From a virus: a stretch of 64,000 bases of DNA. A program made the position numbers and the translations under genes. Position 1 is the first letter of the stretch; every line of letters begins with the position of its first letter. The stretch lies in IMG/VR virus record IMGVR_UViG_3300047322_000608, positions 11,870 through 75,869 of that record. The stretch is one strand, 5' to 3'. Shown piece by piece: positions 3,001 through 61,916 of the stretch. The notes under the pieces were generated by a model. The model did no database searches. It was not told where the DNA came from and saw nothing but the letters and a program-made list of their open reading frames with translations.

Positions 3001-3888
3001 CCAGGTCCGAACCGCCTCCGTGGAAGCCTTCTCGCCGAAGATGCCCTTGAGTATCCGCTCGGGGATTACAGCGCCAATGGATGCGCCTGCGCCTGAGATT
3101 AAGGCCCCTACCTTCGCATCCTCTGGCGTGACACCTTCCTGTCCGGAAAGCTCGCCATATGCCCCGCCAGCCCCCAATGCGCCGAAGTTAGCCATGGAAG
3201 CGCCAATGCTCGCCATGTGACCGGCTGCGTCCTTGACGACTTTGGCGACCGGCTTGGAAAGAGCGCTTTCCATGACCTTTCCGGCCGCGAAATCTTCCAG
3301 CTCCTTCCGCTCCACCGCAGTTAAGGTTCCCTCGATTACCTTTCGCAAGGCACTTCGGGCCGCCGCCTGGCCAAAGAAGGTCGCAGCTCCGGCTTCCGTG
3401 CCGGGCCCGGGCGCCATCGCCGTGCCAGCCGCGGCGAACGTGAGCGCTTCGCCAACATTCGGGATCAACTCGCCAACCTTTCCAGCCACGTATTGACCGG
3501 CTGCAGGGAAGCTGGTCATCGCCTGCTGGATTGTGGGGACGCTCGCAGGAGCTTCTTCGGCTGTCTGCTTGAGCTTGCGCTTGTACAAGTCCAGGTAGAA
3601 TTCCTTGGCTCCTTGAGCACCCAGCGTGTCGGAAGCCAAAGCCAAGGCTCCGGCACCAGAAGCTTCCATGCCCAGGACGCCGCGGCTAAATCCGCGTCCG
3701 AGCTGCTCGGTCATGGACGATTGCTGGACCGCTTGCTGTTGCTGGACCTTCTGCCAGTCAGCCAGGAAATCAGGGAAGGCCGATAGCGCTTCGGGTTTGT
3801 ACCGCTCGGCAAATCCCCGCATCACCTCTTCGTCCGGTGTGGTGTCTCCCGGATTATTCTCCCGATAGAATTGGACGAGCGTGTTCAG
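1..3888 (-). CDS. Large polyvalent/internal virion protein (>1296 aa, C-terminus beyond window) with zincin-like metallopeptidase domain
   Basis: Not in the ORF track because it runs off the edge. Frame checked at both ends and at ~2050. Contains TFLHEYVHG (~301-330) followed by EFIAEAFSNPQFQNFL, typical of zincin domains of phage large polyvalent proteins. The N-terminus NTLVQFYRENNPGDTTPDEEV starts at a CTG overlapping the upstream TGA. Confidence 0.8.
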   Translation of the reverse strand, partial: MNTLVQFYRENNPGDTTPDEEVMRGFAERYKPEALSAFPDFLADWQKVQQQQAVQQSSMTEQLGRGFSRGVLGMEASGAGALALASDTLGAQGAKEFYLDLYKRKLKQTAEEAPASVPTIQQAMTSFPAAGQYVAGKVGELIPNVGEALTFAAAGTAMAPGPGTEAGAATFFGQAAARSALRKVIEGTLTAVERKELEDFAAGKVMESALSKPVAKVVKDAAGHMASIGASMANFGALGAGGAYGELSGQEGVTPEDAKVGALISGAGASIGAVIPERILKGIFGEKASTEAVRTWIDSKAVTVPKELLVAGSGMGAMEFFNILGERYADPKKRDTEFTKDEWSRLLNATATGILAGMPAAAITALRGGPTKDWLPTPAEPTPPAGPAESAAADQTPPPPPAPDQPAAPTPGAPPEPFPTAPISKTQQAVMDSRRLLLEAQTKATAELKRESKNVAVPATPEEERLTVVEEIRRNEAKTVREIQELFPKSELSREQARELRNAAWGAPDTHVAETYGKVTAEQKLVLLEIANKEVAGTMTDADRQYIQQLPAGQKEQYKFIREGVEDATQKREEPSDVQQQRVGDNAQLQKEAQDREEQAKLKEKGAQAGAGDRLQQAAVELSPENKAALKTIGIDADALTTGTATVEAPTAEASPVDAAVARARAKALSEKPAAERKVPVEKAATTEVKPPTPAAPAQVEAGAAPSTKAPWEKTQAEVVAQNKRMIESGGGVFTADAEHRTRENHREIVRDALAEGKAVPDNVLADYPTLKKSETPASSDWLSKVPESYNAWFEPVAGKEEVGLFGRPGESAIEKEGNSYESTNSLGVFRRPDGKIVVGTLKQTGKPRVNRVQASAIAAKSYESLIKEGWKPLGVIRTGEAKQSKVFHEYTPEEWAKIKPQLEAKADAGSQSVREVAPLPVAEAAEAKLGSIQKEQRLEGGANWISKSRTQPIADELSWDLDTAPKDRHAEVVKGLSETIKNNPDVAKAVADIKEDKLDKFYRSLFRAYNNVHEEFTNNPEITQGQLRSRFVDELQKLAGEHGRGEREGVAEPSSTGAEIALPQEPTPGSDEGVGGGAAGEEGHLATTDIGRDQDTSPRFQGIVRDVLSKSKNAFEALVALNKLGLFGDSKIVNDLIALGDHGTRLSVGGEHRGEDGRESAGRYDPLTHTANVYEPAFADGSSLRTFLHEYVHGNTVFNLETGRNRGELTFLYEFAKEQADKQGVTNQYGLTNHAEFIAEAFSNPQFQNFLRSIKSTGVNKTMWTRFLEWVAKMIGIKDPTLLDDVIGVGRKISG

Positions 3889-5069
3889 GGGGTTGGGCTA
3901 GGCGAGAGCGGAGCCGTAAACTGATTGGTGTTGTATGGCGGATATGCGGTGGGGAACAAAGCACTGTTCTGCGCAGCCGAATCCTGCAGGAACTTGCGCA
4001 GCCTCAAGTTTGAAAGTTCACTGGGATCGGTGGGAGCAGCCGGAGCGGCGTTGGTCGACGGATAGATCAAGCTGTTGATAAAGTCCGGGCCTTTGTTTAT
4101 CACCGCGCGACCTGCGTTGATGGCGCCCTGAGTTAGAAATCCTCCAGGAGTTGCGGTTTCCGGAGCAACGAACGGTGTTGCCGCAGGGGCAATGGGCGGG
4201 CCTGCCACAGCGCCATTGACACGCGGGGTTGGAAGACCGAAGTTCGGTTGCTTGGAAGGCGGGGCTGGCGGGGGAGCGGATGCTTTAGCATAGGCATCCA
4301 TTGCCTCCGTCTCCACCTTTGGATTGTAAACAAACCCATTCTGCAGCGACTTAACTCGGTCTAGAGCCAGTCGATAGTCAGCAGTCGCTCTAGCAAGTTC
4401 CGGTTTACTGGCCGCTTCCTTCTCGAATTCCGTTGTAACAGTGCTCGTTACCTGGTTCATGGCTTGAACGTAGGCTTCGTACTTCGCTTTTTTCCCGGCC
4501 GCAAATTGCTTGCGGAATTCCGTCAGCTTGTCCGGATTATTTCGTATCAGCTCCCGCTCGGCAACGGTCATTTCCTTAGCCACCATAGGATCGTCCGCAA
4601 TCAATCCTGCCACTCGTGAAGCAAATGCTTTCGGATCCTGGCCCGTATGCCGGAGAATTCCAGACAAAGCAACTCCAGCCGCCCGATTGGCTTCGATGTA
4701 GGTCTTCCCTCGATTGTCGACGTAGGCTTTGGATGCCGTATCAAAGCTTGCATCACTTGGTAGGTCTGCACCGGTCTCGTTAGCCTTGGCAACCATGGCT
4801 CTCCGCTCCTTCTCTTGCTCCTCGTCGCTCTTGAGCTTGAACTCATCCTTCATCCGCTGCAGCACCATGGCGTTAGCCGCAGCAGCCCGTTGGTTTTCGC
4901 CTTCTTCCCGAATCTGTTCGACCTGGCGGGCCTGGTTCAATCGATCCTTCGCCTGCCGATCTTGCATGGCCAGAGCCAGGGCGCCCTGGCTGTAGTTGGT
5001 GACTGGCGAGTAGGCTTGCTGAAAAAGCTGCGCCAGTTGCGCTTGATCATCAAAAGTTCCGCTTGGCAT
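3885..5069 (-). CDS. Putative internal virion (ejection) protein
   Basis: 394 aa, Ala/Gln-rich helical, located between the pilot-like protein and the giant virion protein. Confidence 0.55.
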   Translation of the reverse strand: MPSGTFDDQAQLAQLFQQAYSPVTNYSQGALALAMQDRQAKDRLNQARQVEQIREEGENQRAAAANAMVLQRMKDEFKLKSDEEQEKERRAMVAKANETGADLPSDASFDTASKAYVDNRGKTYIEANRAAGVALSGILRHTGQDPKAFASRVAGLIADDPMVAKEMTVAERELIRNNPDKLTEFRKQFAAGKKAKYEAYVQAMNQVTSTVTTEFEKEAASKPELARATADYRLALDRVKSLQNGFVYNPKVETEAMDAYAKASAPPPAPPSKQPNFGLPTPRVNGAVAGPPIAPAATPFVAPETATPGGFLTQGAINAGRAVINKGPDFINSLIYPSTNAAPAAPTDPSELSNLRLRKFLQDSAAQNSALFPTAYPPYNTNQFTAPLSPSPTP

Positions 5070-27490: not shown

Positions 27491-29056
27491 TCAAGCGGAG
27501 TAGTATTGCGGCTTTATGGCTTCGACAGCTCCGGGGACTTCCGTTCGTCTCGTTGAATAATAGAAGTAACCGTAACTGTAAGAATCGAAGTTGTGGACAT
27601 AGCGGCTCTTCGGCTTCGGCTTGAGCCGATCCTTCGGATCATGCGGCAGGCGCATGAACATTTCCCTGGTTCTCCGGCAGGTCGCCGAGATTAACGTGCT
27701 CCCGCTCACCAGTGAATCGGTGACCAGCCGGACACGCGCTTCAATCGAGAACTCGCCCTTGGGACATTCCTTCATTCGCACGATAAAGCGCTCTGGCAGG
27801 CCGTGCTTCTCCACGTAAGCGCGCGAGATCTTTTCCACATCCCAGACATCGTAGGACCCACCTTCGGCCCGGTACATGTTGAACGCAGAGCTGTCCGAGA
27901 TATGCGTCCAGACGAACTCGAACTTCATCTTGTCCTCCCAGTAACGCATGCGCTCGATGACCTGCGGGATGCTCTTGGCGTAAGGCGTGTACTGCCCGAC
28001 GTAATCCAGCTCGTCCAGGCAAAGGCGGTAAACTTTGTCCAGAGTCGGAACGATCTGCAGGAAATGAATGCTGCTATGCGCTCCGCCCAGGTCGTAACTG
28101 ACGATCATGGGATTCGGGACCACGGGCAGGAGTCCAAGGCCCTTGGCTGCATCGCCGCGGATGAAGAGATCGGAGTAAGCGCCTTCGAACAGGGAATCGC
28201 CTTCTACTCGGTCGACCCATTCGCCGTCGACCAGGCGCGCTTTCATGACCGGGTCATTCTTGACGGCCGGCAGCACGTAGTTCTCGTAGTAGCCTTCCGA
28301 GAGGTTTGGAAGGTTGTCCGAAACTGGAATATGGAAGTGGGCGTAACGGGCGTCCCATGCGCCGGTCTCCTCGTTGACCGGCATTTCGAAGAACCGTTTG
28401 TAAAGCCAGTGGGACGGGCCCTCCGGATTGCAGCAGAAGATGATCTTGGACGGATCGCCGCTCTTCTTCTTTTTGCGGCCGAGCTGCATGAGCAGGCTCG
28501 TGAAGTAGGTGTCGGTCTCCAGGGTCTGAGCTTCGTCAACCAGGATAATGTCAGGCTCACGGCCGCGGACCTTGCCTTCGACCTGATGAGCTACAGGCAA
28601 CGATGCCAGCATGATCATCGACCAGCCGCCGTGCCGGTTGGAAAGCCAGATGTACGGCTTCTTGGTCTGCGGATCGTAGCGGGTCTCCGTCGCTTGAATG
28701 CCGATCCCCTGCTGCCATTCGGGGATCACGTCTTGCAGTAGCTTGTTCCAGGCTCCGCCTTCGGTGCCCATGGCGAACTCTTTCAGAATGATGAAACCCA
28801 GGCAGTTGTCGTTCTTGTAACAGTAATCGACAATCTCTTCGACGCCCAGATGGCTTTTCCCGCTGCCACGCTCGCCGTAGTAGAGCTTGTAGATCGCCTT
28901 GTTGTCGTGCGCTTTTTGCTGGATCGGATTGAGCTTGGGCCGCCAGCCTTTCTGGAACTGGACCTGATGTGAGTCTGGCCTGACCCTCTCCGGATCGGCT
29001 TCCTCGAACTGCGCGACCAGGGCCTCCAGTGCTGCTTTACTCCGAAGAATTCCCAT
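27491..29056 (-). CDS. terL: Terminase large subunit
   Basis: Walker A YGERGSGKS, Walker B ILVDEAQ, coupling motif CCNPEGPSHWLYKRF, nuclease SYDLG and C-terminal HNFDS. Confidence 0.9.
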   Translation of the reverse strand: MGILRSKAALEALVAQFEEADPERVRPDSHQVQFQKGWRPKLNPIQQKAHDNKAIYKLYYGERGSGKSHLGVEEIVDYCYKNDNCLGFIILKEFAMGTEGGAWNKLLQDVIPEWQQGIGIQATETRYDPQTKKPYIWLSNRHGGWSMIMLASLPVAHQVEGKVRGREPDIILVDEAQTLETDTYFTSLLMQLGRKKKKSGDPSKIIFCCNPEGPSHWLYKRFFEMPVNEETGAWDARYAHFHIPVSDNLPNLSEGYYENYVLPAVKNDPVMKARLVDGEWVDRVEGDSLFEGAYSDLFIRGDAAKGLGLLPVVPNPMIVSYDLGGAHSSIHFLQIVPTLDKVYRLCLDELDYVGQYTPYAKSIPQVIERMRYWEDKMKFEFVWTHISDSSAFNMYRAEGGSYDVWDVEKISRAYVEKHGLPERFIVRMKECPKGEFSIEARVRLVTDSLVSGSTLISATCRRTREMFMRLPHDPKDRLKPKPKSRYVHNFDSYSYGYFYYSTRRTEVPGAVEAIKPQYYSA

Positions 29057-29900
29057 TGGCCTCCATTCCAGGGATTATCTCTGGCGGTTCGGGTTGAGCA
29101 ACTTCCTGTGGGATCACGCGCGGGCTAAACCCTGGCCGCTGACTGCGCTTCATCACGCCGCGGACAGGGGCACCGTTATCATCCCGCATTCGCATCCGGA
29201 CCAACGCAAGCTGCGCGCTGCCCTGATACCATGTGTCCTGAATGTCCGATAGCAGTTGGCCGATCGTCGCGTACGATTTGATCAGGTTCTTCTCTTCGGC
29301 TACCCATCCATCACGCTCGTCGCTCGCAAAATCGCCATACTCGAGAATCACCCGACGCACATCTTCCAGCCGTTTCTCGATTGTTCGTTGCTCGGTCTGG
29401 AGCTTCATGGCAGTCGAGAATACGCCAGAGCTGATCATCTCCATGGCGTTAGCGAACCGGTTCTGGCCGAAGTGCTGCATGGCCACAGCAGCATCAACCT
29501 CAGCGGGGCTCAGGCCGATGGAATAAAGATCTCGCCGGAGCTGTCCGAAGGATGTCTCGATCTTATCCGCGATCGCCTCAGCGGATATGCCGCGCTCTTC
29601 CAGACCTTGCTTGACCCCATTAGGGTCTACCACTTGCCTGGTCTCGATCACCGAGAACTTCGGGATGTAATCCCAGTTGATCAGGTGGCCGCACTTCTTT
29701 TTGAAGACGCTCCATTGAACGATGTTCCAGCCAAGTTTTTCTCGAATCTGCTGGATGTGCGGCTGGCCGTTCGGCCTGCGAAACTCCTGCACATAGGAAT
29801 TAACGAGCCGGATCAGATCATCGTCCCGCAAGACGACACGCTTCTGCTTAGAAATGTATCCACCCGTTTCCGGGTTGCGCTCCAAACCAGGCGAACTCAT
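29037..29900 (-). CDS. Putative terminase small subunit
   Basis: Immediately upstream of and overlapping terL; N-terminal HTH-like region and helical body. Positional call. Confidence 0.4.
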   Translation of the reverse strand: MSSPGLERNPETGGYISKQKRVVLRDDDLIRLVNSYVQEFRRPNGQPHIQQIREKLGWNIVQWSVFKKKCGHLINWDYIPKFSVIETRQVVDPNGVKQGLEERGISAEAIADKIETSFGQLRRDLYSIGLSPAEVDAAVAMQHFGQNRFANAMEMISSGVFSTAMKLQTEQRTIEKRLEDVRRVILEYGDFASDERDGWVAEEKNLIKSYATIGQLLSDIQDTWYQGSAQLALVRMRMRDDNGAPVRGVMKRSQRPGFSPRVIPQEVAQPEPPEIIPGMEANGNSSE

Positions 29901-31318
29901 ATCGGCATTTCCTGTTGCGGTTGCGGTTCTGGCGGCTCCGCATCTGCGTAAGGCGATTGGTAACCAGCATCTGAATCAGAGACTTTGGCGCAGGATTCGA
30001 ACCGGGTGTACTGCCGCATAAAGGTGAGCGGGACAGTTCCGGTTGGACCGTTGCGTTGCTTGCAGACCTCCAGGTTGACCGGGGTGGCATCTCCGTCGTC
30101 TTCGTCCGTGTCTCGGGAAGGCTTCCAAAGGATGCCCACAAAATCGGCATCCTGCTCCAAACTGCCGCTCTCTCTGAGATCGGACATGCGCGGCCGGCGT
30201 TCCTTGTCCTTCTCAATTCCGCGGTTGAGCTGACTCAAAGCGATAACGGGGATGCCCAGTTCTTTGGCCAATCCTTTCACACCCTTGCTGATGAAGGAGA
30301 CTTCCTGTTCCCGGCTGTCGTTCTTATTCCGCTCCGCACTCATGAGTTGCAGGTAATCGATCACGAGCAATCCGATCCCGTGCTGCTGCACCATGCGCCT
30401 GGCGCGCGTCCGCAAACCCAGGATGCTTAGTCCGGACTGATCGTTGATCACGATCTTGGAAGCATGCAACCGGCTAGCCGCCGCCGTCAATCTCGGGAAA
30501 TCAGCTTCGGACAGGAACCCAGCCTGAATCCGGCGCACATTGGTTCTGGCTCGGGAGCAGAGCATACGGACAACGAGCGAGGCCTTGGTCATCTCCAGAG
30601 AGAACACTCCGACCGGTATTCCCAGATTCACCGCAACATGGTCGGCGATGTTCATGGATAGGGAAGTCTTCCCTAAACTAGGGCGCCCTGCGATCACGAT
30701 CATTTCTCCGGCATGGAACCCCGTCGTCATCTTGTCCAAGTCCGTGAATCCAGTCCCGATCCCGGTCAAGGCGCCCTGCGAAGAATGCCAGGACTCAATT
30801 TGAGCGAGCGCGTCTGGCAGGAGGGATTGAACGGTCGCCTCCTCGTTCTTCGGCACGCTCCCTTCGGCGAGGTTCAAGATCTCCGTCGCCGCCTGGCTGA
30901 TCAGCTCATCGGGCGAGTCGGTGTTGCCGTAGGCATTGGCTACATTGTCCGTGCAAAACCGGATCAGCTTTCTGGCCTTCCACTTGTCATGCAGGATGGC
31001 CAGGTAATAGCTCAGGTTGGACGCGCTCGGAACGGTATCGCTCAGCGTGGCCAGGTAGGACAAGCCGCCCACTTGATCGAGCAACGCCTGGAACTCGAGC
31101 CAGTTCCGGAGCGTGACCAGATCGATCGGCTCCTGCGCGTCGTACATCTCCACCATGATCCGGTAAAGGTTCTGGTGCGCTTGGTCGTAGAAGATGTCGT
31201 GTCCGGAACCGATGCTCTCGATAGCTTCGGGCATGACCTTGGCCCAATCGAGCATGACGCAGCCCAGGACGGCTTGTTCCGCTTCCTGGTCGTGCGGCGG
31301 CAATCGATCGACGTTCAT
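29897..31318 (-). CDS. dnaB: Replicative DNA helicase
   Basis: PPHDQEAEQAVLG, AGRPSLGKT, VIDYLQLM, ALSQLNR, SDLRESGSLEQDAD, KQRNGPTG. Confidence 0.97.
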   Translation of the reverse strand: MNVDRLPPHDQEAEQAVLGCVMLDWAKVMPEAIESIGSGHDIFYDQAHQNLYRIMVEMYDAQEPIDLVTLRNWLEFQALLDQVGGLSYLATLSDTVPSASNLSYYLAILHDKWKARKLIRFCTDNVANAYGNTDSPDELISQAATEILNLAEGSVPKNEEATVQSLLPDALAQIESWHSSQGALTGIGTGFTDLDKMTTGFHAGEMIVIAGRPSLGKTSLSMNIADHVAVNLGIPVGVFSLEMTKASLVVRMLCSRARTNVRRIQAGFLSEADFPRLTAAASRLHASKIVINDQSGLSILGLRTRARRMVQQHGIGLLVIDYLQLMSAERNKNDSREQEVSFISKGVKGLAKELGIPVIALSQLNRGIEKDKERRPRMSDLRESGSLEQDADFVGILWKPSRDTDEDDGDATPVNLEVCKQRNGPTGTVPLTFMRQYTRFESCAKVSDSDAGYQSPYADAEPPEPQPQQEMPI

Positions 31319-32545: not shown

Positions 32546-32958
32546 ATCTCAGACTCGGCAAACTTTCGCCGGAAAGGACTCTTTTCATTCCCTGGTGGAG
32601 TTGCTGGGTATCCGGTTTTGGAATCGATAACGGTGTAACCGGCTTCCTTTAACGCTCTCCTTAAAAATGAGAAGCCGCAGTTGGATCCCAGCCACTGGAT
32701 CATCGTGGCGGCGACAAACCTTTCCGAAGCTGTGACGTTGTGCTGATGTCCGCGATTAGAGAACAGAGCTTGCATCAAACCAACACCGTGATGGCTGGAA
32801 TTGTTGGTAGCGTTTTCTTCCTGCCAGAGTTCTGCGAACGCTTTCTCGAGATTGTTCCACTTCGTCCGCTCGTAGTAGTCGCCACGATTCTTCATGCCAA
32901 GGTTATGCTTGTCCAGGTTGGTCATTGGCAGGAAGCTCGTTTGCGATTGCTGGCTCAT
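32542..32958 (-). CDS. Hypothetical protein
   Basis: ATG at 32958; AATMIQWLGSNCG motif. Confidence 0.6.
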   Translation of the reverse strand: MSQQSQTSFLPMTNLDKHNLGMKNRGDYYERTKWNNLEKAFAELWQEENATNNSSHHGVGLMQALFSNRGHQHNVTASERFVAATMIQWLGSNCGFSFLRRALKEAGYTVIDSKTGYPATPPGNEKSPFRRKFAESEI

Positions 32959-34184
32959 GGCAGCTTCTGGAGTGATGCGCTGACCGGGATGGGCCGAGTT
33001 GTTCCAGCCAGAACCTCCGCCACCTTTGCATCCAACGCTTGCCCCTTGAGCTTGGACTTGGCGCGCACCAAGCCGATGACTTCTTTTTTGGTGATCGAGC
33101 AGAGCTGCGTGAATTGCAGCACGCCGATCGACCATTCGGCTGAGCATCTGGCGTAGACGGTGCTGATGTCTTCGACCTTGGACCTTGGCGTGTTCGGTTT
33201 CAATCCCCATCCTGGGACGCTGGCAGGATCGATTCTCAGCCTGCGCTTGGCTTCGGTCTGCGCCAGGTCGCAGGCATCTCGCAAGGCCGGGACCCAGGCC
33301 AGCAGCTTTGCCATGGCAGCAGGAGGAAGCGCGGAAATCCCCAGCTCAAGTTCGGACTTGTTTGGCGGCTTGGCAACGTGCTCAACGATCGTGATCATGG
33401 CCGCTTGCTGAGCGATCTCGTACTCCGGACAAATCAGCTTGCCGCGACAATGATGGCACTGGACTGGACCGGCTGTTCGTTTGGCGGCCGGGTCCATCAT
33501 GGCAGCAATGTCCATGTGCATTTCCATGACGGCCATCTGGATCGCGTCGGCATCGTAAACTGTGGGTGTTGGGTTCAACGTCTTGGCTGGTTGATTGAGA
33601 TAGGCCGTAGCAGACCGGATCTCGCTGTAGCCCAGAGTCTGCGCGTTCACCGCAATCAACGCGATGTAGCGGCGGATCTGAACGTTAAGCGGCGCTTCGT
33701 CGTGATGGCCCCAGAGCCCTTTCAAGTCCGCTACCAGGATGTCCGCAGGCCCCCCTTCGTTGCCACGGATCCAGACTGCATCCGTTTGCCCGGAGTAACG
33801 CGGCTCACCTTGCGAATCACTAAGCCACCAGCGGGACTCCCGCATTTCGAGCAGCGGCAAGGCTGGCTCCAGGTCAGCGCCGATGCTCGTGAGCCAGGCA
33901 TCCTTCATCTTCGTATCGACCCGCAGCGCTTTCTCGGCGCGATCGATCTCAGCCTGGGTTGCGCCTGGAGATTCCTTCCCGGCGTAGAGCAAATGGATGC
34001 GCTTGCCCGCTTCACGATCTCGGTCGATGTCTTCCGCGAACTCTTCCGCATCTTCTTCCGGTTCGACCTCCGGACAGACTGTGTACCACTGCTTCTGCAG
34101 TTGGAATCGGCCGGCGCAAAGGGAGTCCTCCAGGGCAGAAGAGCCAGAGGGGAGGCCAAGGCGTTCATCAATTGGTTGGGTCAT
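32955..34184 (-). CDS. PD-(D/E)xK / Cas4-like exonuclease (DUF2800-like)
   Basis: SGSS...LCAG, GKRIH, SGQTDAV...ADLKG, QIRRY and QCHHCRGKLICP cluster. Confidence 0.75.
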   Translation of the reverse strand: MTQPIDERLGLPSGSSALEDSLCAGRFQLQKQWYTVCPEVEPEEDAEEFAEDIDRDREAGKRIHLLYAGKESPGATQAEIDRAEKALRVDTKMKDAWLTSIGADLEPALPLLEMRESRWWLSDSQGEPRYSGQTDAVWIRGNEGGPADILVADLKGLWGHHDEAPLNVQIRRYIALIAVNAQTLGYSEIRSATAYLNQPAKTLNPTPTVYDADAIQMAVMEMHMDIAAMMDPAAKRTAGPVQCHHCRGKLICPEYEIAQQAAMITIVEHVAKPPNKSELELGISALPPAAMAKLLAWVPALRDACDLAQTEAKRRLRIDPASVPGWGLKPNTPRSKVEDISTVYARCSAEWSIGVLQFTQLCSITKKEVIGLVRAKSKLKGQALDAKVAEVLAGTTRPIPVSASLQKLP

Positions 34185-34282
34185 AGTTGGTGCCGTCTCT
34201 CCGAGCTGCCACGCTCCCATTGAGTCGCTGGTGTACGGCCAGCCAAAGGGTATCGTTCGCGTTCTCCGTTTCGGCCGAAAGG

Positions 34283-35554
34283 TTACTTCGCTTTGAACGT
34301 CTTGATTGCCGCGCCAATACCCTTCTTGTTCGACGTGAAGAAGGATGCCTTGTCGTCCGGCACATCCTCCCACCGGTTCGGCGGAGTCGCTTTGAACCAG
34401 GGCATCGGCGTGCTCTTCCCCCAGTTTTTGAAGTCGTCGAACGTGTAACCCATTTCCAGGATGACGTCGCGCAGCTTAGCCTGGGCATCCGTGATGACGG
34501 GCTGCGGCGGCTCCGGTTTGGTTTCTTGAACAGGCTCAGTCGCAGGTTCAGTCTGCAACTCAGGCGGCAACGTGGCAGGTTCTGGTTCGGGCTCGGGTGC
34601 AATGGTGATAGCACTGACCTGAGTCGTTGGCGGCTCGGCGTGACCCGTGACATTCGTTTGCGCGGGCTCGGGTTCAGACGGTTTGGTTTCAGGAACGACC
34701 GCTGCGGGAGCTGGCGCAGGCTTCGTCTTGGCTTCCTTCTTGGGATTTACCTTCTGCTCTGGCTGCTCTTGTTCCTTCTTCGCGGGATGTTCGAACAGTG
34801 GCTTGGTTGGCTCGAGTAACGGGAACGCCTCGTCAACGGTCTGGTCCCCTTCCTTGATAGCCGTCCTGAGACCGGTCAGCGTTTCCAGTTGCTCCAGTCC
34901 GACGTCCTCTTCGCCCACCACTCCGAGCACGGCGAACACCCTAGCCTTGTCGATCTTTAAGCTGGTAACCCATGACATGGCTTTGGTCCGTCGAATCTTT
35001 AATGTCTCCGCCGTGCCAATTGCAACAAGCTTCGCTTTCTCGATAAGCGGCTTGAGTAGGGCCTTCGGCACAACCCGGAAGATCGCGTCCCTCAACGCCT
35101 TGCTGATCGTCGCGTTCGCGATCATGATGGCCATATCCTCGTTGTATGGCCTACCGTCCGAGTAGGTTGTCTTGGCTTGCTTCTCGACCGCAATGAAGTT
35201 GTTCGTCTCCAGGTCGTGGCAGACCGCGCGCACACTCACCCTGGTTGGAGTGTAGCCTGAGATTTGAACGGCGCTTCTCAAGTTGCCGTAGCAGGAGGCA
35301 ACGATCTCTGCCATCCGGATGCTCTCGCCTTCGATCGCTTTACCGCCACGGGTGATCTTGAACAGGCAGCTCGCCGCGGTGTCTTCGTCAAGCGTCACCA
35401 TCGCCTCAGCCCGTTTGTAAAACTGCTGGAGGCTTCTCGGGAATTGGTGGGCTGTGCTGATCTGAACGTCGATCTCCGCTCTGGTGATGCTCTCGATCGG
35501 AGCGACTTCAAGCTCGAACTTCCCGTCTTTAACTTCTTCGGTCTCGTTATTCAT
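34283..35554 (-). CDS. Putative ssDNA-annealing recombinase
   Basis: RAEIDVQISTAHQFPRS...GESIRMAE...SKALRDAIFRVVP; paired with the exonuclease. Confidence 0.6.
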   Translation of the reverse strand: MNNETEEVKDGKFELEVAPIESITRAEIDVQISTAHQFPRSLQQFYKRAEAMVTLDEDTAASCLFKITRGGKAIEGESIRMAEIVASCYGNLRSAVQISGYTPTRVSVRAVCHDLETNNFIAVEKQAKTTYSDGRPYNEDMAIMIANATISKALRDAIFRVVPKALLKPLIEKAKLVAIGTAETLKIRRTKAMSWVTSLKIDKARVFAVLGVVGEEDVGLEQLETLTGLRTAIKEGDQTVDEAFPLLEPTKPLFEHPAKKEQEQPEQKVNPKKEAKTKPAPAPAAVVPETKPSEPEPAQTNVTGHAEPPTTQVSAITIAPEPEPEPATLPPELQTEPATEPVQETKPEPPQPVITDAQAKLRDVILEMGYTFDDFKNWGKSTPMPWFKATPPNRWEDVPDDKASFFTSNKKGIGAAIKTFKAK

Positions 35555-38061: not shown

Positions 38062-39159
38062 ATGTCACTCACCCTCACCGTTAGCAGCCTGAACGGACAC
38101 GACTTGTCCGCGACCCGCGGCAACCCCTTCCATCCGTTTAAGACGATCGCAGCAGCCCTGGCTCAGACCCGGGACGGAGATCGACTCGAGATCCGAGACG
38201 GGCCTTACGCCGAACAGGGATTGGTCCTGCGTTACGTTAACGGCGTAACCATTGCCGGCATTGGGCAACCCGTCATCACCGCATCAACCCGCGGGCATAT
38301 TCTGCGTATCAACAGTTGCAACGACCTTTCCGTTACCGGCCTGAAGTTCAACGGCACGGGCCCGATCACCGAACCGAACGAGCTTTACTTCGCGCTCGTC
38401 GAGTTGCAGAGCGTCAACGATCGGCTCTCCTTTTCCGATTGCCAGTTCACCAACTCCGGCAATCACGGCCTGGCGCATCTCGCTGGCCCCAGGACCAGCA
38501 GCAACGTGACGGTCGATCGCTGCTCCTTCGAACGTGGCGGCAATTACGGCCGAACCCAAAACCTGATCTGGGATGGCGCCGCTATCGCAGTCGGAGGCAT
38601 CGGCATCCGCATAAGACGGACACGGATCAAGGACTGGCCCCGCGGCATAGAATTCGAGAATCCCTACGGAGATTGCACCTTTTACGTGGACAACTGCGAC
38701 GTCTCCGAGTGCGCGCATGCCGGCCTCTTTATCACTCCAACCGGACCGCAGAACAACATCTCCCGGCAACACTTTACCGGGAAGATCCTTAACTCAAGGT
38801 TCACGAACGGTAAGAAAGTCCCGGGCGGCTTCCTGGCCTCTGGCATGGTGATCTCTGGCGGCCAAGACGTGCTCCTCTCCGGCAATACCGTTTCGGATTT
38901 CCCTGACGGCTGCGGCATCGAATGCTCCGCCAAGTGGGGCCCGCTCTCCCGCTTTATCATTTCCAATAATCACGTCACCAACATCGGCCGCTCCGGCATC
39001 TTGTTCCGGCACGGCCCAGACGGAACGAAGTCTCTCGCAGACGGCCTGGTCTGCGCCAACAACATCCTCGCCAACATCTCCGGAGCACCCATAGACTTCC
39101 TGGCCTACAACATCCAGGAGTCCTGCAACCTGCTCCCTCCGCTCCAGGTCGAGTCATGA
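38062..39159 (+). CDS. Right-handed parallel beta-helix (pectin lyase-like) protein
   Basis: G.....PFKTIAAAL....DGD.LEI.DG.Y start and repeated I..N.....GI beta-helix coils. Confidence 0.8.
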   Translation: MSLTLTVSSLNGHDLSATRGNPFHPFKTIAAALAQTRDGDRLEIRDGPYAEQGLVLRYVNGVTIAGIGQPVITASTRGHILRINSCNDLSVTGLKFNGTGPITEPNELYFALVELQSVNDRLSFSDCQFTNSGNHGLAHLAGPRTSSNVTVDRCSFERGGNYGRTQNLIWDGAAIAVGGIGIRIRRTRIKDWPRGIEFENPYGDCTFYVDNCDVSECAHAGLFITPTGPQNNISRQHFTGKILNSRFTNGKKVPGGFLASGMVISGGQDVLLSGNTVSDFPDGCGIECSAKWGPLSRFIISNNHVTNIGRSGILFRHGPDGTKSLADGLVCANNILANISGAPIDFLAYNIQESCNLLPPLQVES

Positions 39160-39419: not shown

Positions 39420-39487
39420 CGGTGTCCTGAGCACTCACTAGTGCAGAGGTTGCGGAGCGTGAACATCCCCCTGGCGCCATTGTTGGT

Positions 39488-40084
39488 TCATTGGCCCGGG
39501 GGGAGAACTTCCCCAGCCGCCGCGTCCAAGAGCCGCTTCATATCCGCTTCCGCAGCCTTAGCCTCCAGCTCCGCCGACTTCATTCGTTCCAAACGATCCG
39601 CTTCCTTCTCATCCCCATCCTCAATCGCCTTCTCCGCCAGACGCTCGTTCAACGATGGGCCGCCAGAACCGCCTCGCTTCGCTTTCCTGGCCTCCCTCTT
39701 CTGCCTAAACTTCTCCTGGGCTAAACGGTTCTGCTCCCTTCGGTCCTCCTCGTTCTGGATCGACTTGTAGTAAGCATAATTGACAACGCGATACGCAAAC
39801 GGACCAATCTTTACAATCCTTCGACCCTCATCACCAGGGGTCGTCGTCTTAGGATCCGGCCGACACAGATATTCGATCGCTCTCTCAATAACATCCGCCG
39901 TCGTCCCGAACGTTGCCGCGATCAAAACCGGATTCATTTCAATGTAACCCCCGTGAACTTTGTCCGGCATCGCCTCCGATATGATGTAGGGCATGAGCGC
40001 GTAAACCTCAATTCCAGCACCGACCATCGAACCACGGTAAAGCTTCGAAAAAATCTTGCCGTAAGTCATTCCTTCTTGTCTCAC
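39488..40084 (-). CDS. Putative replication initiator (replisome organiser-like)
   Basis: YGKIFSKLYRGSM, winged-helix-like middle, PDPKT...EGRRI, VVNY..Y...EDRREQNRLAQEKFR pattern of phage replication proteins. Confidence 0.6.
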   Translation of the reverse strand: MRQEGMTYGKIFSKLYRGSMVGAGIEVYALMPYIISEAMPDKVHGGYIEMNPVLIAATFGTTADVIERAIEYLCRPDPKTTTPGDEGRRIVKIGPFAYRVVNYAYYKSIQNEEDRREQNRLAQEKFRQKREARKAKRGGSGGPSLNERLAEKAIEDGDEKEADRLERMKSAELEAKAAEADMKRLLDAAAGEVLPPGQ

Positions 40085-40947
40085 GCCAAAAACACTACAT
40101 CAACACAAATCTTACACGTAAGCAAAGGTAAGCCGAATCAGCATAGGAGTAATCAAAATAAGCACAGTTAGAGTAAGAGTTAGAAGAGAGAGTTCGTCGT
40201 CAACCTCAAACATGGCGTCATCCATTGAAAACAGGCTGCACTACACTCACGGGTAACCGCAAACACAAGACGAATCACCATCCCAGATTTAGCCCCGGAT
40301 TCCATGAAAGTTGAGAAGGGAGACCCATCACAGCCAGCAGGACCACCCCGCCCTTCCCCGGGACACCCCCACCCAATCGGCTGCCAGGTCGATTCCAGGA
40401 CTGAGCCACATTAAGCCGATAATGTCACCCGATGCTGCTGCTGCTGGCCTTTGCGACTATCGGCGCACAGTAGGCAACGTGGCGGTTGGCTTCCGATGGC
40501 AGGTTACAGACTGCCCACAGAGAGCCCGATAGCCCTACGTCAAACCCCGATGGAATCATCAGGAATGGGAGTTGGGTGAATACACCCAAGTCAGTAGGCA
40601 AGGTATAGTCTCTCCTAACATTCTTAGGCTGACCTAACATTTGGGCTTCCTGGATCTCGGCTTTGAGTAACCTTTTGCCCCCTTTCCTTGTAACCTTGGC
40701 TTGGGAGTAGTGTAGCCGGTCGCTCGTTTGAGCGTTTACCTGACTCGTTTGAGTCAAGCGGCGGTCCTTCCGGTGTCTCGGGTTGAACTGAGCGCAGGTG
40801 TGGGCGGCAGGGGTCGAAAGGCCTGCCATGGGATTACCACGGGGTTTGCCGTAGTTTCCGAGCGTATCGCGATAACCCGTCAAGGCGAAGCAAGGTCGAA
40901 ACGGTCTTAGATACTCCAATTCCTAACGGGATACAGTGGGAACTCAC

Positions 40948-41024
40948 AAGCTTAACGTAGCCCAGTTACTCGTTTGAGTAGCTGGTCGGTGACAAGCCCG
41001 GGGAAACAATACGGAGTCAAGCTT
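40948..41024 (+). ncRNA. Twister ribozyme (type P1)
   Basis: P1 AAGCU/AGCUU, conserved U^AA, P2 CGUA/UACG, GC, P3 hairpin 40962-40985, P4 UCGG-UGACAAGC-CCGG, GA then GUCA pairing with UGAC (T1 pseudoknot). Confidence 0.9.
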
Positions 41025-41052
41025 AACGATAGGAACAAGATACGAGGAATAT

Positions 41053-41481
41053 ATGTCAGCAACCAGTTTGATCAGTTTCGACGCAAGCGCCAACGCGGTA
41101 ACGTCTTACAACGAGAAGATGAAAACCACTACCTTGCGCTTGCTTACGGCGAAGGAGTTCAAGACGGCGCGTGGGCTCAAGGGGAACGCCGCTTCGGTGG
41201 CTTACAATGCCTACATTCGGGAGCATGGTCTGGCGAACACGGCGGGTTTGGCGGCGGCGCTCACGTCGGGTGAGTTGTTGGTTCGTTCGGCGAGGGACAG
41301 CTCGAAGTCCCTGAACGTGTCGTTTGTCAAGAAGTCTGCCATCAAGGACCCGGCCGTGAAGTCTGCCCCTGCCCCCGAAGTCACGGCTCTGGAGACTGAA
41401 GTTGCCAACCTGAAGGCTATGCTGGCTGGGCTTGGCGCGAAAGCGGAAGAGATTGCGGCGGCGCGCCCGAGCGCGGTGTAG
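41053..41481 (+). CDS. Hypothetical protein (first early gene)
   Basis: Strong RBS, biased codon use. Confidence 0.65.
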   Translation: MSATSLISFDASANAVTSYNEKMKTTTLRLLTAKEFKTARGLKGNAASVAYNAYIREHGLANTAGLAAALTSGELLVRSARDSSKSLNVSFVKKSAIKDPAVKSAPAPEVTALETEVANLKAMLAGLGAKAEEIAAARPSAV

Positions 41482-41514
41482 TCGGTCCGTGGCGGGTAAG
41501 TCTGGCGGCAGATT

Positions 41515-41555
41515 GGCAGGGTTGGAGCGTGTCTCCTGCCCTGCCGCTTCTGTTT
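41515..41555 (+). terminator. Possible terminator
   Basis: GGCAGGGT...GCCCTGCC stem followed by CTTCTGTTT. Confidence 0.4.
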
Positions 41556-41590
41556 CTAGAGTCCGTTTAACCTGGAACAAGTACGAACGT

Positions 41591-42487
41591 ATGCAAGACA
41601 TGACTGCGCTGGCGGAGCAAATCCGGCAGCGTATTCTCGCGTCTCAGCCTGCCGCGGAAGTGCCTCGGAAGGCTGGGGATGCGGGAGTTGCTGCCCCTTT
41701 GGGAAGCCAGAGGCAGCATTACAAGTTCCCGTTGTTGCTGGCGGCCGTGGCAAGTGGCGTGGACGCCATTGCCCTGGTTGGTCCGGCTGGAACGGGAAAG
41801 ACGACAGCGGCGCATTCGTGCGCCAAGCTGCTGGGCAGGCGCTTTGAGCCTACCAGCTTCGGTCCGACCACGTCCAAGGCTGACTTGTTCGGCTTTGTGG
41901 ACGCGAACGGGGTCTATCGTGACTCCGCTTTAGTGCGAGCTGCCAGGGATGGTGGCGTGTTCCTGGGGGACGAGCTTGATGCTGGTCATCCTGGGGTTGT
42001 TACGGGCCTGAACATGGTTCTGGCCAACGGCGTGTTCGGCATTCCGACCGGGGTGCTCGAGAAGCACGCGGAGTTCGTTCCCATCTTCGGGATGAACACG
42101 TACGGGACCGGGGCGAACCGGCAATACGTGGGCAGGAACCAACTGGACGCTGCGAGCCTGGACCGGATGGCTGTGATCGAATGGGATTTGGACTGCGGGT
42201 TAGAAGCGGCCATGGTCGGGGTGAACGGGGTGCAATCGCCTGCGTTCGATCTGGGCAAGCACGGGACCATGACAGCGCCGCAGTGGTTGGCGCGGGTTTG
42301 GTCCGTCCGGAAAGCGATTGAATTGCTGGGGGTCCGGCACATCGTTAGCCCGCGGTGCTCGCAGAACGGCATCAAGCTGTTCCGGGCTGGCGTGGGCAAG
42401 GCGCACGTCCAGGAAATGGTGCTCTGGAAAGGGATGGACGCGGAGACCCGGGAACGGGTTGAAGCCAAGGTAAAGGAGATCCTGTGA
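41591..42487 (+). CDS. MoxR/CbbQ/CobS-like AAA+ ATPase
   Basis: GPAGTGKT, FLGDELDA, MNTYGTGANRQYVGRNQLDAASLDR, VSPR. Confidence 0.9.
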   Translation: MQDMTALAEQIRQRILASQPAAEVPRKAGDAGVAAPLGSQRQHYKFPLLLAAVASGVDAIALVGPAGTGKTTAAHSCAKLLGRRFEPTSFGPTTSKADLFGFVDANGVYRDSALVRAARDGGVFLGDELDAGHPGVVTGLNMVLANGVFGIPTGVLEKHAEFVPIFGMNTYGTGANRQYVGRNQLDAASLDRMAVIEWDLDCGLEAAMVGVNGVQSPAFDLGKHGTMTAPQWLARVWSVRKAIELLGVRHIVSPRCSQNGIKLFRAGVGKAHVQEMVLWKGMDAETRERVEAKVKEIL

Positions 42488-46929: not shown

Positions 46930-47007
46930 GCAACACCGCACCGTGCTGCGGGGAAAGCACGGATCTTTTGCAGGCTTCCGACGTGTTCGGTGGCCTGGAA
47001 AGGAACA

Positions 47008-47694
47008 GTGACGAAAACAAAGAACAAGAAACTCAAGTTTAGCGTGGAAGACCTGCGCAAGCTGAACCCCTGCCACGAAGCGCTGGCGTGGGTTGATAAG
47101 CAGCATGGCGAGTCTCCATCGGATCTGTGGCAGATGTGCCCTCGATCGGATTGGATGCTATGGCTGCTTGCACGGGTTCGACCGTTGTCCAAGCCGGAAG
47201 CGGTGACATTGGCGTGCCGGTTCGCGCTCAAAGTCCTGACGGTATTCGAGACCCGCTATCCATACGATAAGCGCCCGCGGCAGGCGATTGAGGCAGCTCA
47301 GGCGTGTCTGAAAGACCCGTCTGCTTCTGCTGCTTATGCTGCTGCTTCTGCTGCTTCTGCTGCTTATGCTGCTGCTGCTGATGCTGCTGCTGCTGATGCT
47401 TCTGCTGCTGCTGCTGCTTATGCTGCTGCTGATGCTGCTGCTGATGCTTCTGCTTATGCTTCTGCTTATGCTGCTTATGCTGCTGATGCTGCTGCTGATG
47501 CTGCTGATGCTGCTGCTTATGCTTATGCTGCTGATGCTGCTGATGCTTCTGCTGCTTATGCTGCTGATGCTGCTGCTGCTGCTTATGCTGCTGATGCTGC
47601 TGCTGATGCTGCTGATGCTGCTGCTGATGCTGCTGCTGCTCGCAAGAAGCAGGCCGACATTATTCGCGAGATCATCGGCAACCCATTCAAGTGA
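47008..47694 (+). CDS. Imm5-like protein with Ala/Tyr/Asp/Ser low-complexity tract
   Basis: DWMLWLL...ACRFA..VL.VFE..YP.DKRPRQAIEAA followed by a 107-codon A-rich repeat; GTG start behind AAAGGAACA. Confidence 0.7.
   Translation: MTKTKNKKLKFSVEDLRKLNPCHEALAWVDKQHGESPSDLWQMCPRSDWMLWLLARVRPLSKPEAVTLACRFALKVLTVFETRYPYDKRPRQAIEAAQACLKDPSASAAYAAASAASAAYAAAADAAAADASAAAAAYAAADAAADASAYASAYAAYAADAAADAADAAAYAYAADAADASAAYAADAAAAAYAADAAADAADAAADAAAARKKQADIIREIIGNPFK
47320..47640 (+). repeat. Degenerate trinucleotide repeat (GCT/TCT/TAT/GAT only)
   Basis: 321 nt composed solely of four codons of the form [G/T][C/A]T. Confidence 0.95.
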
Positions 47695-51517: not shown

Positions 51518-51570
51518 GCGCGAAACGGGCTTCGGCCCGTCTGCTGGTATGCGCCAGCACCGATGAGCGC
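51518..51570 (+). ncRNA. Hammerhead ribozyme, type II, U4C core variant
   Basis: GCGC-GAAA-CGGGC(UUCG)GCCCG-UC^-UGCUGGU(AUGC)GCCAGCA-CCGAUGA-GCGC. Confidence 0.85.
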
Positions 51571-51595
51571 CCGGAATAAACCACAAAGTCTGCGC

Positions 51596-51625
51596 TTGAC
51601 ATGCGTTAACGAAGTAAACTAGCGT
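51596..51625 (+). promoter_or_regulatory. Sigma70-like promoter
   Basis: TTGACA-18-TAGCGT, 23 nt upstream of the ATG at 51649. Confidence 0.55.
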
Positions 51626-60388: not shown

Positions 60389-60804
60389 GCCAAAAGAAAC
60401 GTTGCTCCGGCGAAGAAGCCTGGAGCAGACGACTCGACCGGTTCGTGCCGATCCTGGTTCGCCTTCTGGCCCGGGACCCAAGAGGACGCCCGCTGACAAC
60501 CGCGGAGATCGCCGAACGGTCTGGCCTGTTCCCGATGGAGATAGAGACCCTGTCCCGCGCCACGTCATGGGATGGCGTCACCATCCCGACTTACCGATCC
60601 TTCTGCCGGGCTTGCAACCTGGACCTGATGAACTCGCAACAGGCCAAACGCAACGAGGTTTACCTAAATGGGAAGCTTGTCAACGGTGTTCGGCAGCCAT
60701 GCCTGTGGTTATTCCTTAAACGCGATCCGGCCTGGGAGACCTACTACCGGCCGCTCATGCTCCTCTACATCGAGTTCATTACCAAGAAATTGAAAACGCC
60801 ATGA
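60385..60804 (+). CDS. HTH DNA-binding protein
   Basis: LTTAEIAERSGLFPMEIETLS; adjacent to the integrase. Confidence 0.6.
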   Translation: MSQKKRCSGEEAWSRRLDRFVPILVRLLARDPRGRPLTTAEIAERSGLFPMEIETLSRATSWDGVTIPTYRSFCRACNLDLMNSQQAKRNEVYLNGKLVNGVRQPCLWLFLKRDPAWETYYRPLMLLYIEFITKKLKTP

Positions 60805-61916
60805 CGCTAACCAAAAACGAATCTGGGTTCTGGGAGGTCCGAGTCAAAGGACCGGACGGAAAGTACAAGAGCAGGTCTACCGGCCGGAGAATGAAAGGCG
60901 AGGCTCTGGAGTTCATCCGCTCCGCGCGCATCGAAGAACTCGAGACGGCGGCCCAACTCGGAGTCTTGAGCCGGGACGTGGCTTCCATCCTGATCAGCGG
61001 AGCCAATCCTTTGACCGTGGCCGAAGCGATCCCGCGATGGAAAGAACACATGGAATACCGGCGCCTTAGCCCGCGCTCCATTGCCAACGCGGTGATCTGG
61101 GTTAAAGCATGGTCCGCCTGGTCCCACCTAGAGAAGAAGCCTTTGTCGGATCTCAAGATCAGCGACCTGGATGGCTGGATCAACGGCGAGGCCTGCGAGA
61201 ACAAGCTGGGTAGCCGGAAGGTCATGCTCTCTGCGCTGCGTTCGTTCTGCGGTTTCTGTCAGGACTCAGGCTGGATGACTGGCAACCCGGCCAATCTGAT
61301 CAAGGTCGACCTGAGCCTGCTCCTGCACGCTCAGAAGGAGACCCTGAAACGGCCGTGCTTCACGGACGAAGAAGTCCAGATCCTAACCGAAGGAACGGGC
61401 CCGGGCGGGGATTGTGAGCATTCCTTCTGGCACGCAGCCATCATCATCGGCCGCTACACCGGACTGCGCATGGGTGACATTGCCTCTTTGCAATGGGCCA
61501 GCCTGAGCTTGGAAGGCAAAGGGTCTTTGGCTGTCTGGACAACGAAGCGTGATCGACGGGTAGAGCTTCCGCTTGAGCCTGAGATCCTACGATCAGTCTT
61601 CTCCTCCATCCCTTCGGAGCACCCGGTCTACCTGTTCAATCACGAACGGGTTCTGAACGCAGACGTCGGCGCACGCTGCTCGCTATCCATGCAGTTCTCC
61701 AGGATCATGCGCGCTCTCCAGATACCGATCGGGAAGACGTTCCATTGCCTGCGCGCGACCTACATCTCAGATTGCGCGGCCAATGGTATTCCAATCCACC
61801 ATATCTCACAGGCGGTTGGCCACGCTACACCGGACACCACCCACGGTTACATCAGGGAGAGCGGATCAACCCAGAGCATCGACTGCAGCGATAATGGCGC
61901 GCAGCCGGCTGTCTGA
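60801..61916 (+). CDS. int: Tyrosine recombinase/integrase
   Basis: Arm-binding-like N-terminus and catalytic R (TGLRMGDI), K, HxxR (FHCLRATY), H (VGH), Y (THGY). Confidence 0.92.
   Translation: MTLTKNESGFWEVRVKGPDGKYKSRSTGRRMKGEALEFIRSARIEELETAAQLGVLSRDVASILISGANPLTVAEAIPRWKEHMEYRRLSPRSIANAVIWVKAWSAWSHLEKKPLSDLKISDLDGWINGEACENKLGSRKVMLSALRSFCGFCQDSGWMTGNPANLIKVDLSLLLHAQKETLKRPCFTDEEVQILTEGTGPGGDCEHSFWHAAIIIGRYTGLRMGDIASLQWASLSLEGKGSLAVWTTKRDRRVELPLEPEILRSVFSSIPSEHPVYLFNHERVLNADVGARCSLSMQFSRIMRALQIPIGKTFHCLRATYISDCAANGIPIHHISQAVGHATPDTTHGYIRESGSTQSIDCSDNGAQPAV

Follow-up and report, generated by a model that had tools for sequence, protein, structure and literature searches.

The window analysed here is a 64,000-nt stretch of DNA, bases 11870–75869 of the 75,869-bp IMG/VR record IMGVR_UViG_3300047322_000608, which represents an uncultured phage; all coordinates refer to this window unless stated otherwise. 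DNA of the phage is present in soil and rhizosphere metagenome runs. Judged by its gene content, the genome looks like that of a tailed phage. The terminase large subunit (27491–29056), a DnaB-like helicase (29897–31318) and an exonuclease (32955–34373) are encoded on the minus strand, and a beta-helix protein (38062–39159) and an integrase (60801–61916) on the plus strand. Searching GenBank phages by blastn, both with the locus and with the ribozyme described below, gave no meaningful match, and the terminase reached a best identity of only ~26% among GenBank phages. No tRNA or tmRNA was found in the window. A giant ORF of 2,912 aa occupies positions 1–3825 on the minus strand and extends to genome base 6956; its C-terminal 1,275 aa had no Pfam or PHROG match. 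A match to the Rfam family isrG at 47366–47661 (+) was rejected as an sRNA: it is a low-complexity GCTGCTGAT tandem coding repeat within ORF 46990–47694 (bias 18.3).

The locus of interest lies between two divergent sets of genes. On the minus strand, positions 39488–40069 encode a 193-aa protein of unknown function, whose ATG at 40069 is preceded by AAGAAGGA. The coding score of this ORF is 0.20, compared to a mean of 0.28 for long genes. The plus-strand ORFs that overlap the same region (39441–39770 and 39953–40171) have negative coding scores and look spurious by this measure, and the minus-strand ORF is probably a real gene. Because the nearest upstream gene is on the minus strand, the 983 nt from 40070 to 41052 form a divergent intergenic region, within which transcription of the plus-strand genes (41053 onward) must start. 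For the same reason, the operon must begin within 40070–40947. This 878-nt plus-strand leader is non-coding, with no frame of positive coding score and no Rfam match. We found no sigma-70-like promoter or intrinsic terminator in 39900–41200, so the RNA fragment upstream of a cut at 40953/40954 could span anything from a few nt to ~880 nt. An initial annotation of the locus, made from the sequence, had described a ribozyme at the head of an early operon. The position at the head stands, given the orientation of the upstream gene, but the word "early" is unsupported, as the DnaB-like helicase and the exonuclease are encoded on the other strand.

Several other features can be read in the leader. 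Two copies of CCTAACATT lie 19 nt apart at 40606–40641, and the arms of a long-range inverted repeat, 23 nt long and 83% complementary, lie at 40535–40557 and 40832–40854, 274 nt apart. Pairing of 40683–40723 with the ribosome-binding site (RBS) region, at -18.2 kcal/mol, was considered as an anti-Shine-Dalgarno structure and rejected, since 91 of 400 random genomic windows equal it.

The plus-strand operon opens with a gene for a 142-aa protein (41053–41481; coding score 0.24) and further encodes an AAA_5 ATPase, a DUF7192 protein, a PAPS-reductase-like protein, an AAA+ protein and an integrase. The first start codon is preceded by a 28-nt spacer (41025–41052, +), in which we read AGGAACA and a GAGGAA Shine-Dalgarno motif (41043–41048). 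The 142-aa protein belongs to no Pfam, PHROG or NCBIfam family. It has 12 homologues of 40–74% identity, all of them metagenomic; neither the single protein nor an alignment query retrieved relatives from IMG/VR, and two scans of JGI metagenome contigs found none. Its sole relative in a cellular genome is encoded at 3001–3336 of a contig from a Verrucomicrobiia MAG (L123; 54% identity), which is a weak hint of a verrucomicrobial host. No twister or hammerhead was found upstream of the homologous gene in L123. The ATPase encoded after the first gene has homologues of 35–37% identity in three IMG/VR contigs.

Between leader and spacer, at 40948–41024 on the plus strand, lies a complete type-P1 twister ribozyme with the optional P3, delineated by the Rfam family RF03160, the minimum free energy (MFE) fold and a descriptor. 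It ends 28–29 nt before the first start codon, with the Shine-Dalgarno motif in between. P1 is formed by two copies of the palindrome AAGCUU, at 40948–40953 and 41019–41024. The first copy is followed by the AA of the conserved core (40954–40955), and as the family consensus has this AA directly before P2, the scissile phosphate is predicted between U40953 and A40954. P2 pairs CGUA (40956–40959) with UACG (41010–41013) and leads into the conserved GCC (40960–40962). The optional P3 (40962–40985), a hairpin of 9–10 bp with the loop GUUU in the MFE fold, holds the third copy of CUCGUUUGAG. P4 (40986–41001) pairs UCGG at 40986–40989 with CCGG at 40998–41001 and closes the loop UGACAAGC (40990–40997), which consists of UGAC (40990–40993), the 5' strand of T1, and the conserved AAGC (40994–40997). 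Immediately after the 3' strand of P2, the consensus alignment places the conserved G41014 and A41015, followed by GUC(A) as the 3' strand of T1 (41014–41019 in all). We take G41014 to be the counterpart of the catalytic guanine of the family.

Both tertiary contacts have the sequence complementarity that they call for. In T1, (U)GAC at 40990–40993 is complementary to GUC(A) at 41016–41019, and in T2, GC at 40996–40997 is complementary to GC at 40960–40961; T2 adds little independent information because both of its sites are invariant positions of the family. In isolation, the 77 nt have an MFE structure made up of exactly P1 (6 bp), P2 (4 bp), P3 (10 bp) and P4 (4 bp). When the twister is folded in a 381-nt context, the MFE structure exchanges P1 and P2 for long-range pairs, but this structure is no better than those of shuffles (z = -0.86) and for that reason we give it little weight. 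Checked against the sequence, all the elements listed in the initial annotation lie where it had placed them, including the 99 nt that it counted from A40954 to the ATG at 41053. The type-P1 identity, cleavage site and catalytic G41014 that it proposed likewise map onto the family consensus by Rfam alignment, MFE fold and descriptor.

The match to the Rfam model of twister-P1 (RF03160) runs end to end, from model position 1 to 68, with all stems paired and a score of 37.5 bits. A local scan gives an E-value of 1.8e-6, and a search of the entire 64-kb window on both strands with all 4227 families gives 1.5e-4. Agreement with the model extends to the conserved AA, GCC, U..CAAGCCCG and GGAG. A search with this model had been suggested in the initial annotation as a check of the assignment; the full-length match supports it, but 37.5 bits falls short of the family's gathering score (67.2 bits), and an Rfam scan at that threshold is blank for the twister. 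The same holds for six other IMG/VR twisters that share its T1 variant, UGAC for UCCC, and score 41.8–47.7 bits. The gathering threshold thus shuts out the whole UGAC variant group and is not informative for it. Part of the deficit arises because the covariance model cannot score the T1 pair and penalises GAC/GUC as mismatches to CCC/GGG.

Statistical and comparative evidence point the same way. A descriptor composed of AA, a 4-bp P2, GC, a 3-bp P4, U-NNN-AAGC, GA and a 3-bp T1 matched a single site in the window, the twister, and none in 300 dinucleotide-preserving shuffles, with both strands searched. Among seven viral twisters, which are not homologous to one another, P2 covaries (CGUA/UACG, UGCA/UGCA, UGUA/UACA, UCCA/UGGA and CCCA/UGGG), and the six other IMG/VR twisters show compensatory changes in both P1 and P2. 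These pairings were taken from the descriptor parse, as MAFFT misaligned copies with P3 against copies without it. When viral twisters were picked on their 5' half alone, the 3' half was complementary in all of them. The exact pattern of P2 and core of our twister had 0 matches in viral contigs, and neither IMG/VR nor the JGI metagenome contigs yielded a homologous locus with a twister, so the covariation is not one within a lineage. On these sequence criteria, we consider the identification as a type-P1 twister secure. In a massively parallel assay, ~94% of predicted natural twisters were active in vitro, changes were tolerated except in the catalytic residues and the pseudoknots, and P3 mattered little (PMC11662667). 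The positions critical in that assay are all intact in the phage twister.

The placement of the twister just ahead of a start codon is shared by many viral twisters. Two scans of IMG/VR with 14-mers, combined with the descriptor, yielded 52 distinct twisters. Of these, 54% lie at most 40 nt upstream of the next ORF start on the same strand, compared to 17% for positions drawn at random from the same loci, with median distances of 38 nt and 181 nt, respectively (Fisher p = 6.5e-9); the ORFs are naive calls of at least 60 aa and the contigs are partly related. The effect is large and agrees with the phage locus, in which 28 nt separate the end of P1 from the ATG. In the course of the survey we also observed many IMG/VR contigs with two or three twisters on the same strand inside a few kb, often each just before a small ORF (among them L150, L174, L181, L188 and L259); in L109, two twisters lie ~400 nt apart.

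A related gene cassette in other phages is also associated with ribozymes. In the contig of a distant phage (L121), an AAA_5 ATPase gene and a homologue of the DUF7192 gene (E = 2e-19) are bracketed by two type-II hammerheads, at 2574–2630 and 4755–4813 (33.6–33.7 bits). A second contig, L120, is nearly identical to L121 from the RBS onward and unrelated upstream, which marks a mosaic boundary. In the place of the first hammerhead, before the identical RBS and gene, L120 carries a promoter-like site of sigma-70 type, TTGACA-18-TATTGT (10/12), at 2577–2606, and its upstream genes face away. We read this contrast to mean that the same 5' region has a ribozyme in front when it lies inside a polycistron, and a promoter when it heads the unit.

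Considering all of this, we think it likely that the leader of the plus-strand operon contains a genuine twister that cleaves itself and thereby provides the first cistron with a defined, folded leader beginning with a 5'-OH. Members of the family are known to cleave to a 5'-OH and a 2',3'-cyclic phosphate (PMC8782182). During transcription of the leader, the 77 nt would fold into P1, P2, P3, P4, T1 and T2 and would be cut co-transcriptionally between U40953 and A40954. The upstream leader would depart with a 3' end of ...AAGCUU and a 2',3'-cyclic phosphate, and the mRNA would start with 5'-OH-AACGUAGCC... The body of the ribozyme, minus six nt, would remain attached to the mRNA, compactly folded and knotted, and end 28 nt before the start codon. 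For the 3' fragment of the twister, the 5' end is reported to lie buried inside the folded structure (PMC8782182).

With such a cut, the 5' end of the first cistron would be short, well defined, structured and free of phosphate, wherever transcription had started. The ribozyme would thus do the job of a promoter at this spot and uncouple the first cistron from the long structured leader, and the folded 5'-OH end may protect the mRNA from decay that depends on the 5' end. A role in the leader of the first cistron seems to us the most likely one for the twister. We infer the cleavage itself, and any effect on the stability or translation of the mRNA, from the features of the locus described above.

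The twister is not fixed in the phage population. Contigs of four DNA runs were aligned to 39900–41700, an interval over which the population contigs show 0 substitutions and one joint only. DNA contigs from two soil/rhizosphere runs, X4 and X5, join position 40946 to 41018, so that exactly 71 nt are absent and the flanks are otherwise identical. From this joint, the presence/absence module was placed at 40947–41017, with an ambiguity of 11 letters. The joined contig of X5 is 309 nt long (149 + 160 nt per side), has 0 other differences and stands at the depth of its flanks; the path through the twister is nearly absent, and the twister-less form is dominant in this run. X4 has both alleles, with and without the twister, and X7 the twister-bearing form.

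A repeat search showed that the module is flanked by an 11-nt direct repeat, CAAGCTTAACG, with its left copy at 40947–40957 and its right copy at 41018–41028 (+). A repeat of at least 11 nt at the same spacing occurs at 0.16% of random window positions. Six of the 11 letters follow from the palindromic AAGCUU of P1; the remaining five, C and AACG, are not explained by it. Loss of the 71-nt unit from DNA yields the same sequence as excision at the RNA level between two AAGCUU^AACG sites. The joined contigs come from DNA runs, and a repeat of 11 nt is too short to collapse an assembly graph built on 31-mers; the twister-less form therefore exists as DNA. The simplest reading is a slippage deletion between the 11-nt repeats across the hairpin-rich 60 nt, and a recent insertion of the 71-nt unit is a possible alternative to deletion. 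No direct repeats flank the six other viral twisters, and the CAAGCTTAACG pair is thus not a general insertion signature.

The natural twister-less allele implies that the ribozyme is dispensable for the phage. The twister is an accessory module that can be gained and lost, and its benefit, if any, is modest or conditional, given that the twister-less allele has identical flanks. The twister could then be a neutral or selfish passenger, active or recently active, that brings the phage no benefit, is gained by illegitimate recombination and is lost by slippage between the 11-nt repeats. The exact presence/absence in otherwise identical DNA of two runs, the dominance of the twister-less form in X5 and a flanking repeat that is improbable by chance are all in keeping with this, as are the related locus L123 without a twister and the ribozymes at mosaic boundaries in L120 and L121. 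We nevertheless consider such a passenger unlikely. Phage twisters are placed non-randomly just 5' of the starts of cistrons, which suggests selection on their position, and the catalytic and pseudoknot positions of this twister are all intact. The lack of flanking repeats at the six other viral twisters also argues against it. A dispensable twister that nonetheless supplies the first cistron with its 5' end is the reading we prefer.

The P3 of the twister is one of three similar hairpins. The other two lie in the leader at 40721–40734 and 40741–40756 (+) and share the apex CUC-GUUU-GAG; the 3' side of the second, GAGUCAAGC, repeats positions 41014–41022 of the twister. The 10-mer CTCGTTTGAG has three copies in the 75.9-kb genome, at 40723, 40744 and 40969, all on the plus strand and within 260 nt. 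Each copy forms the apex of a hairpin, the third being P3, and the outer stems differ from each other in a compensating way. In addition, the local similarity of the twister to 40712–40759 is above that of 99% of random windows (p ~0.008). The resemblance between hairpin 2 and the twister suggests common ancestry or a common ligand. Paired copies of CTCGTTTGAG in viral contigs (19 loci) were considered as relatives of this arrangement and rejected, all being unrelated tandem repeats. Prompted by the 2,912-aa ORF, we also considered N4-like hairpin promoters for the three hairpins; this idea was dropped, as the C-terminal 1,275 aa of the ORF match no family and the phage has an integrase.

The three hairpins raise a further possibility, in which the 71-nt unit, i.e. 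the body of the twister and one copy of CAAGCTTAACG, would be a mobile or intron-like cassette that is recurrently gained and lost, and P3 would in addition be one of three identical protein-binding hairpins that make cleavage of the leader conditional. We consider this combination distinctly improbable. It is more doubtful still that the twister is a switch on a regulated ribozyme/protein platform instead of a constitutive cutter, with P3 and the leader hairpins binding a phage or host protein in a boxB/nut-like manner and cleavage tuned by binding to P3 or by pairing of GAGUCAAGC with hairpin 2. The clustering of the 10-mer on one strand within 260 nt of leader, the compensating differences in the stems outside the apex, the 9-mer GAGUCAAGC common to hairpin 2 and the 3' end of the twister and the similarity to 40712–40759 would fit a switch of this kind. 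However, the analysis turned up no candidate for the binding protein, and P3 is a peripheral element whose influence on cleavage was small in the large assay (PMC11662667). Paired 10-mers in other viral contigs proved to be unrelated tandem repeats, and the similarity statistics are modest and post hoc.

Finally, we give hardly any credence to an inactive look-alike, whether a chance match to the consensus or a decayed copy, trapped for example by the flanking leader structure: the score under the Rfam gathering threshold, the loss of P1 and P2 in the 381-nt MFE fold and the lack of conservation of the twister in relatives would fit one, but comparable viral twisters score alike, that fold is no better than shuffles, and against it stand the E-value of 1.5e-4 for the window, the 0 matches in 300 shuffles, two intact pseudoknots with the catalytic G and A, and a 94% base rate of activity (PMC11662667). 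The probable self-cleaving twister in the leader of the first cistron can be compared with several known systems.

The phage element has the same P1, N^AA loop, P2, GCC, optional P3, P4 with U-NNN-AAGC, GA, T1 and T2 as the type-P1 twister (RF03160; Roth et al. 2014). It differs in its T1, GAC/GUC instead of the consensus CCC/GGG, a variant common to at least six other twisters of viral contigs. Its P1 is the palindrome AAGCUU, its P3 is long and contains the motif repeated in the leader, and its score is below the gathering threshold. Structures of the type-P1 twisters Osa-1-4 from O. sativa and env22 are covered by two reviews (PMC5408937, PMC6154101).

The position of the twister resembles that of hammerheads in other viruses. 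In halovirus HF2, a hammerhead lies before the first ORF of an early polycistronic transcript, and the mapped 5' end is at most 3 nt from the cleavage site (Perreault et al. 2011, PMC3088659). Like the HF1/HF2 hammerhead, the phage twister is a small self-cleaving ribozyme in a polycistronic leader before the first ORF; unlike it, the twister is of another ribozyme class and in a virus of another host domain. Prophage hammerheads flank genes or short gene blocks (PMC3088659), and bacterial twisters occur in the same gene neighbourhoods as hammerheads, close to genes of phages (PMC6765202).

In our phage, the twister precedes the block with the AAA_5 ATPase and DUF7192 genes, and a candidate type-II hammerhead lies 10.5 kb downstream on the same strand, at 51518–51575 (+), directly after a stop codon. 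The candidate (28.0 bits, E = 0.16) falls short of the type-II family (RF02276), which has the conserved core CUGANGA...GAAA with cleavage after GUC and a threshold of 37 bits; its own core reads CCGAUGA (U4C). The U4C change is reported to reduce hammerhead activity strongly in vitro and yet to be viable in a viroid (PMC3088659). As a partner ribozyme of the twister, the candidate is unproven. Compared to the clustered prophage hammerheads (PMC3088659), the gene block of the phage is much longer, and its candidate has the U4C change and scores 28 bits. A TTGACA hexamer lies downstream of the candidate, at 51596–51601.

The arrangement also has a counterpart in engineered systems. RiboJ-type insulators, which are engineered and hammerhead-derived, place a ribozyme between promoter and RBS, where cleavage strips the transcript of its variable 5' leader so that it begins with a structured 5'-OH; they standardise expression and often raise it. 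By analogy, the phage twister may be a natural equivalent of RiboJ.

Phage twisters were already known, and the picture of the twister family is unchanged by the findings at this locus. What is added is a natural pair of alleles with and without the twister and, in a related cassette, the substitution of a promoter for a ribozyme. The function of bacterial and phage twisters is an open question (PMC6765202), and this locus offers a usable case: a divergently transcribed phage operon whose leader carries a twister 28 nt ahead of the first start codon. Natural isogenic alleles with and without the twister coexist in soils, which spares the engineering that a comparison of the effect of the twister on expression would otherwise take. 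A hammerhead and a promoter in the same place before a homologous cassette, in turn, are consistent with the view that phage ribozymes, much like promoters, generate independent 5' ends.
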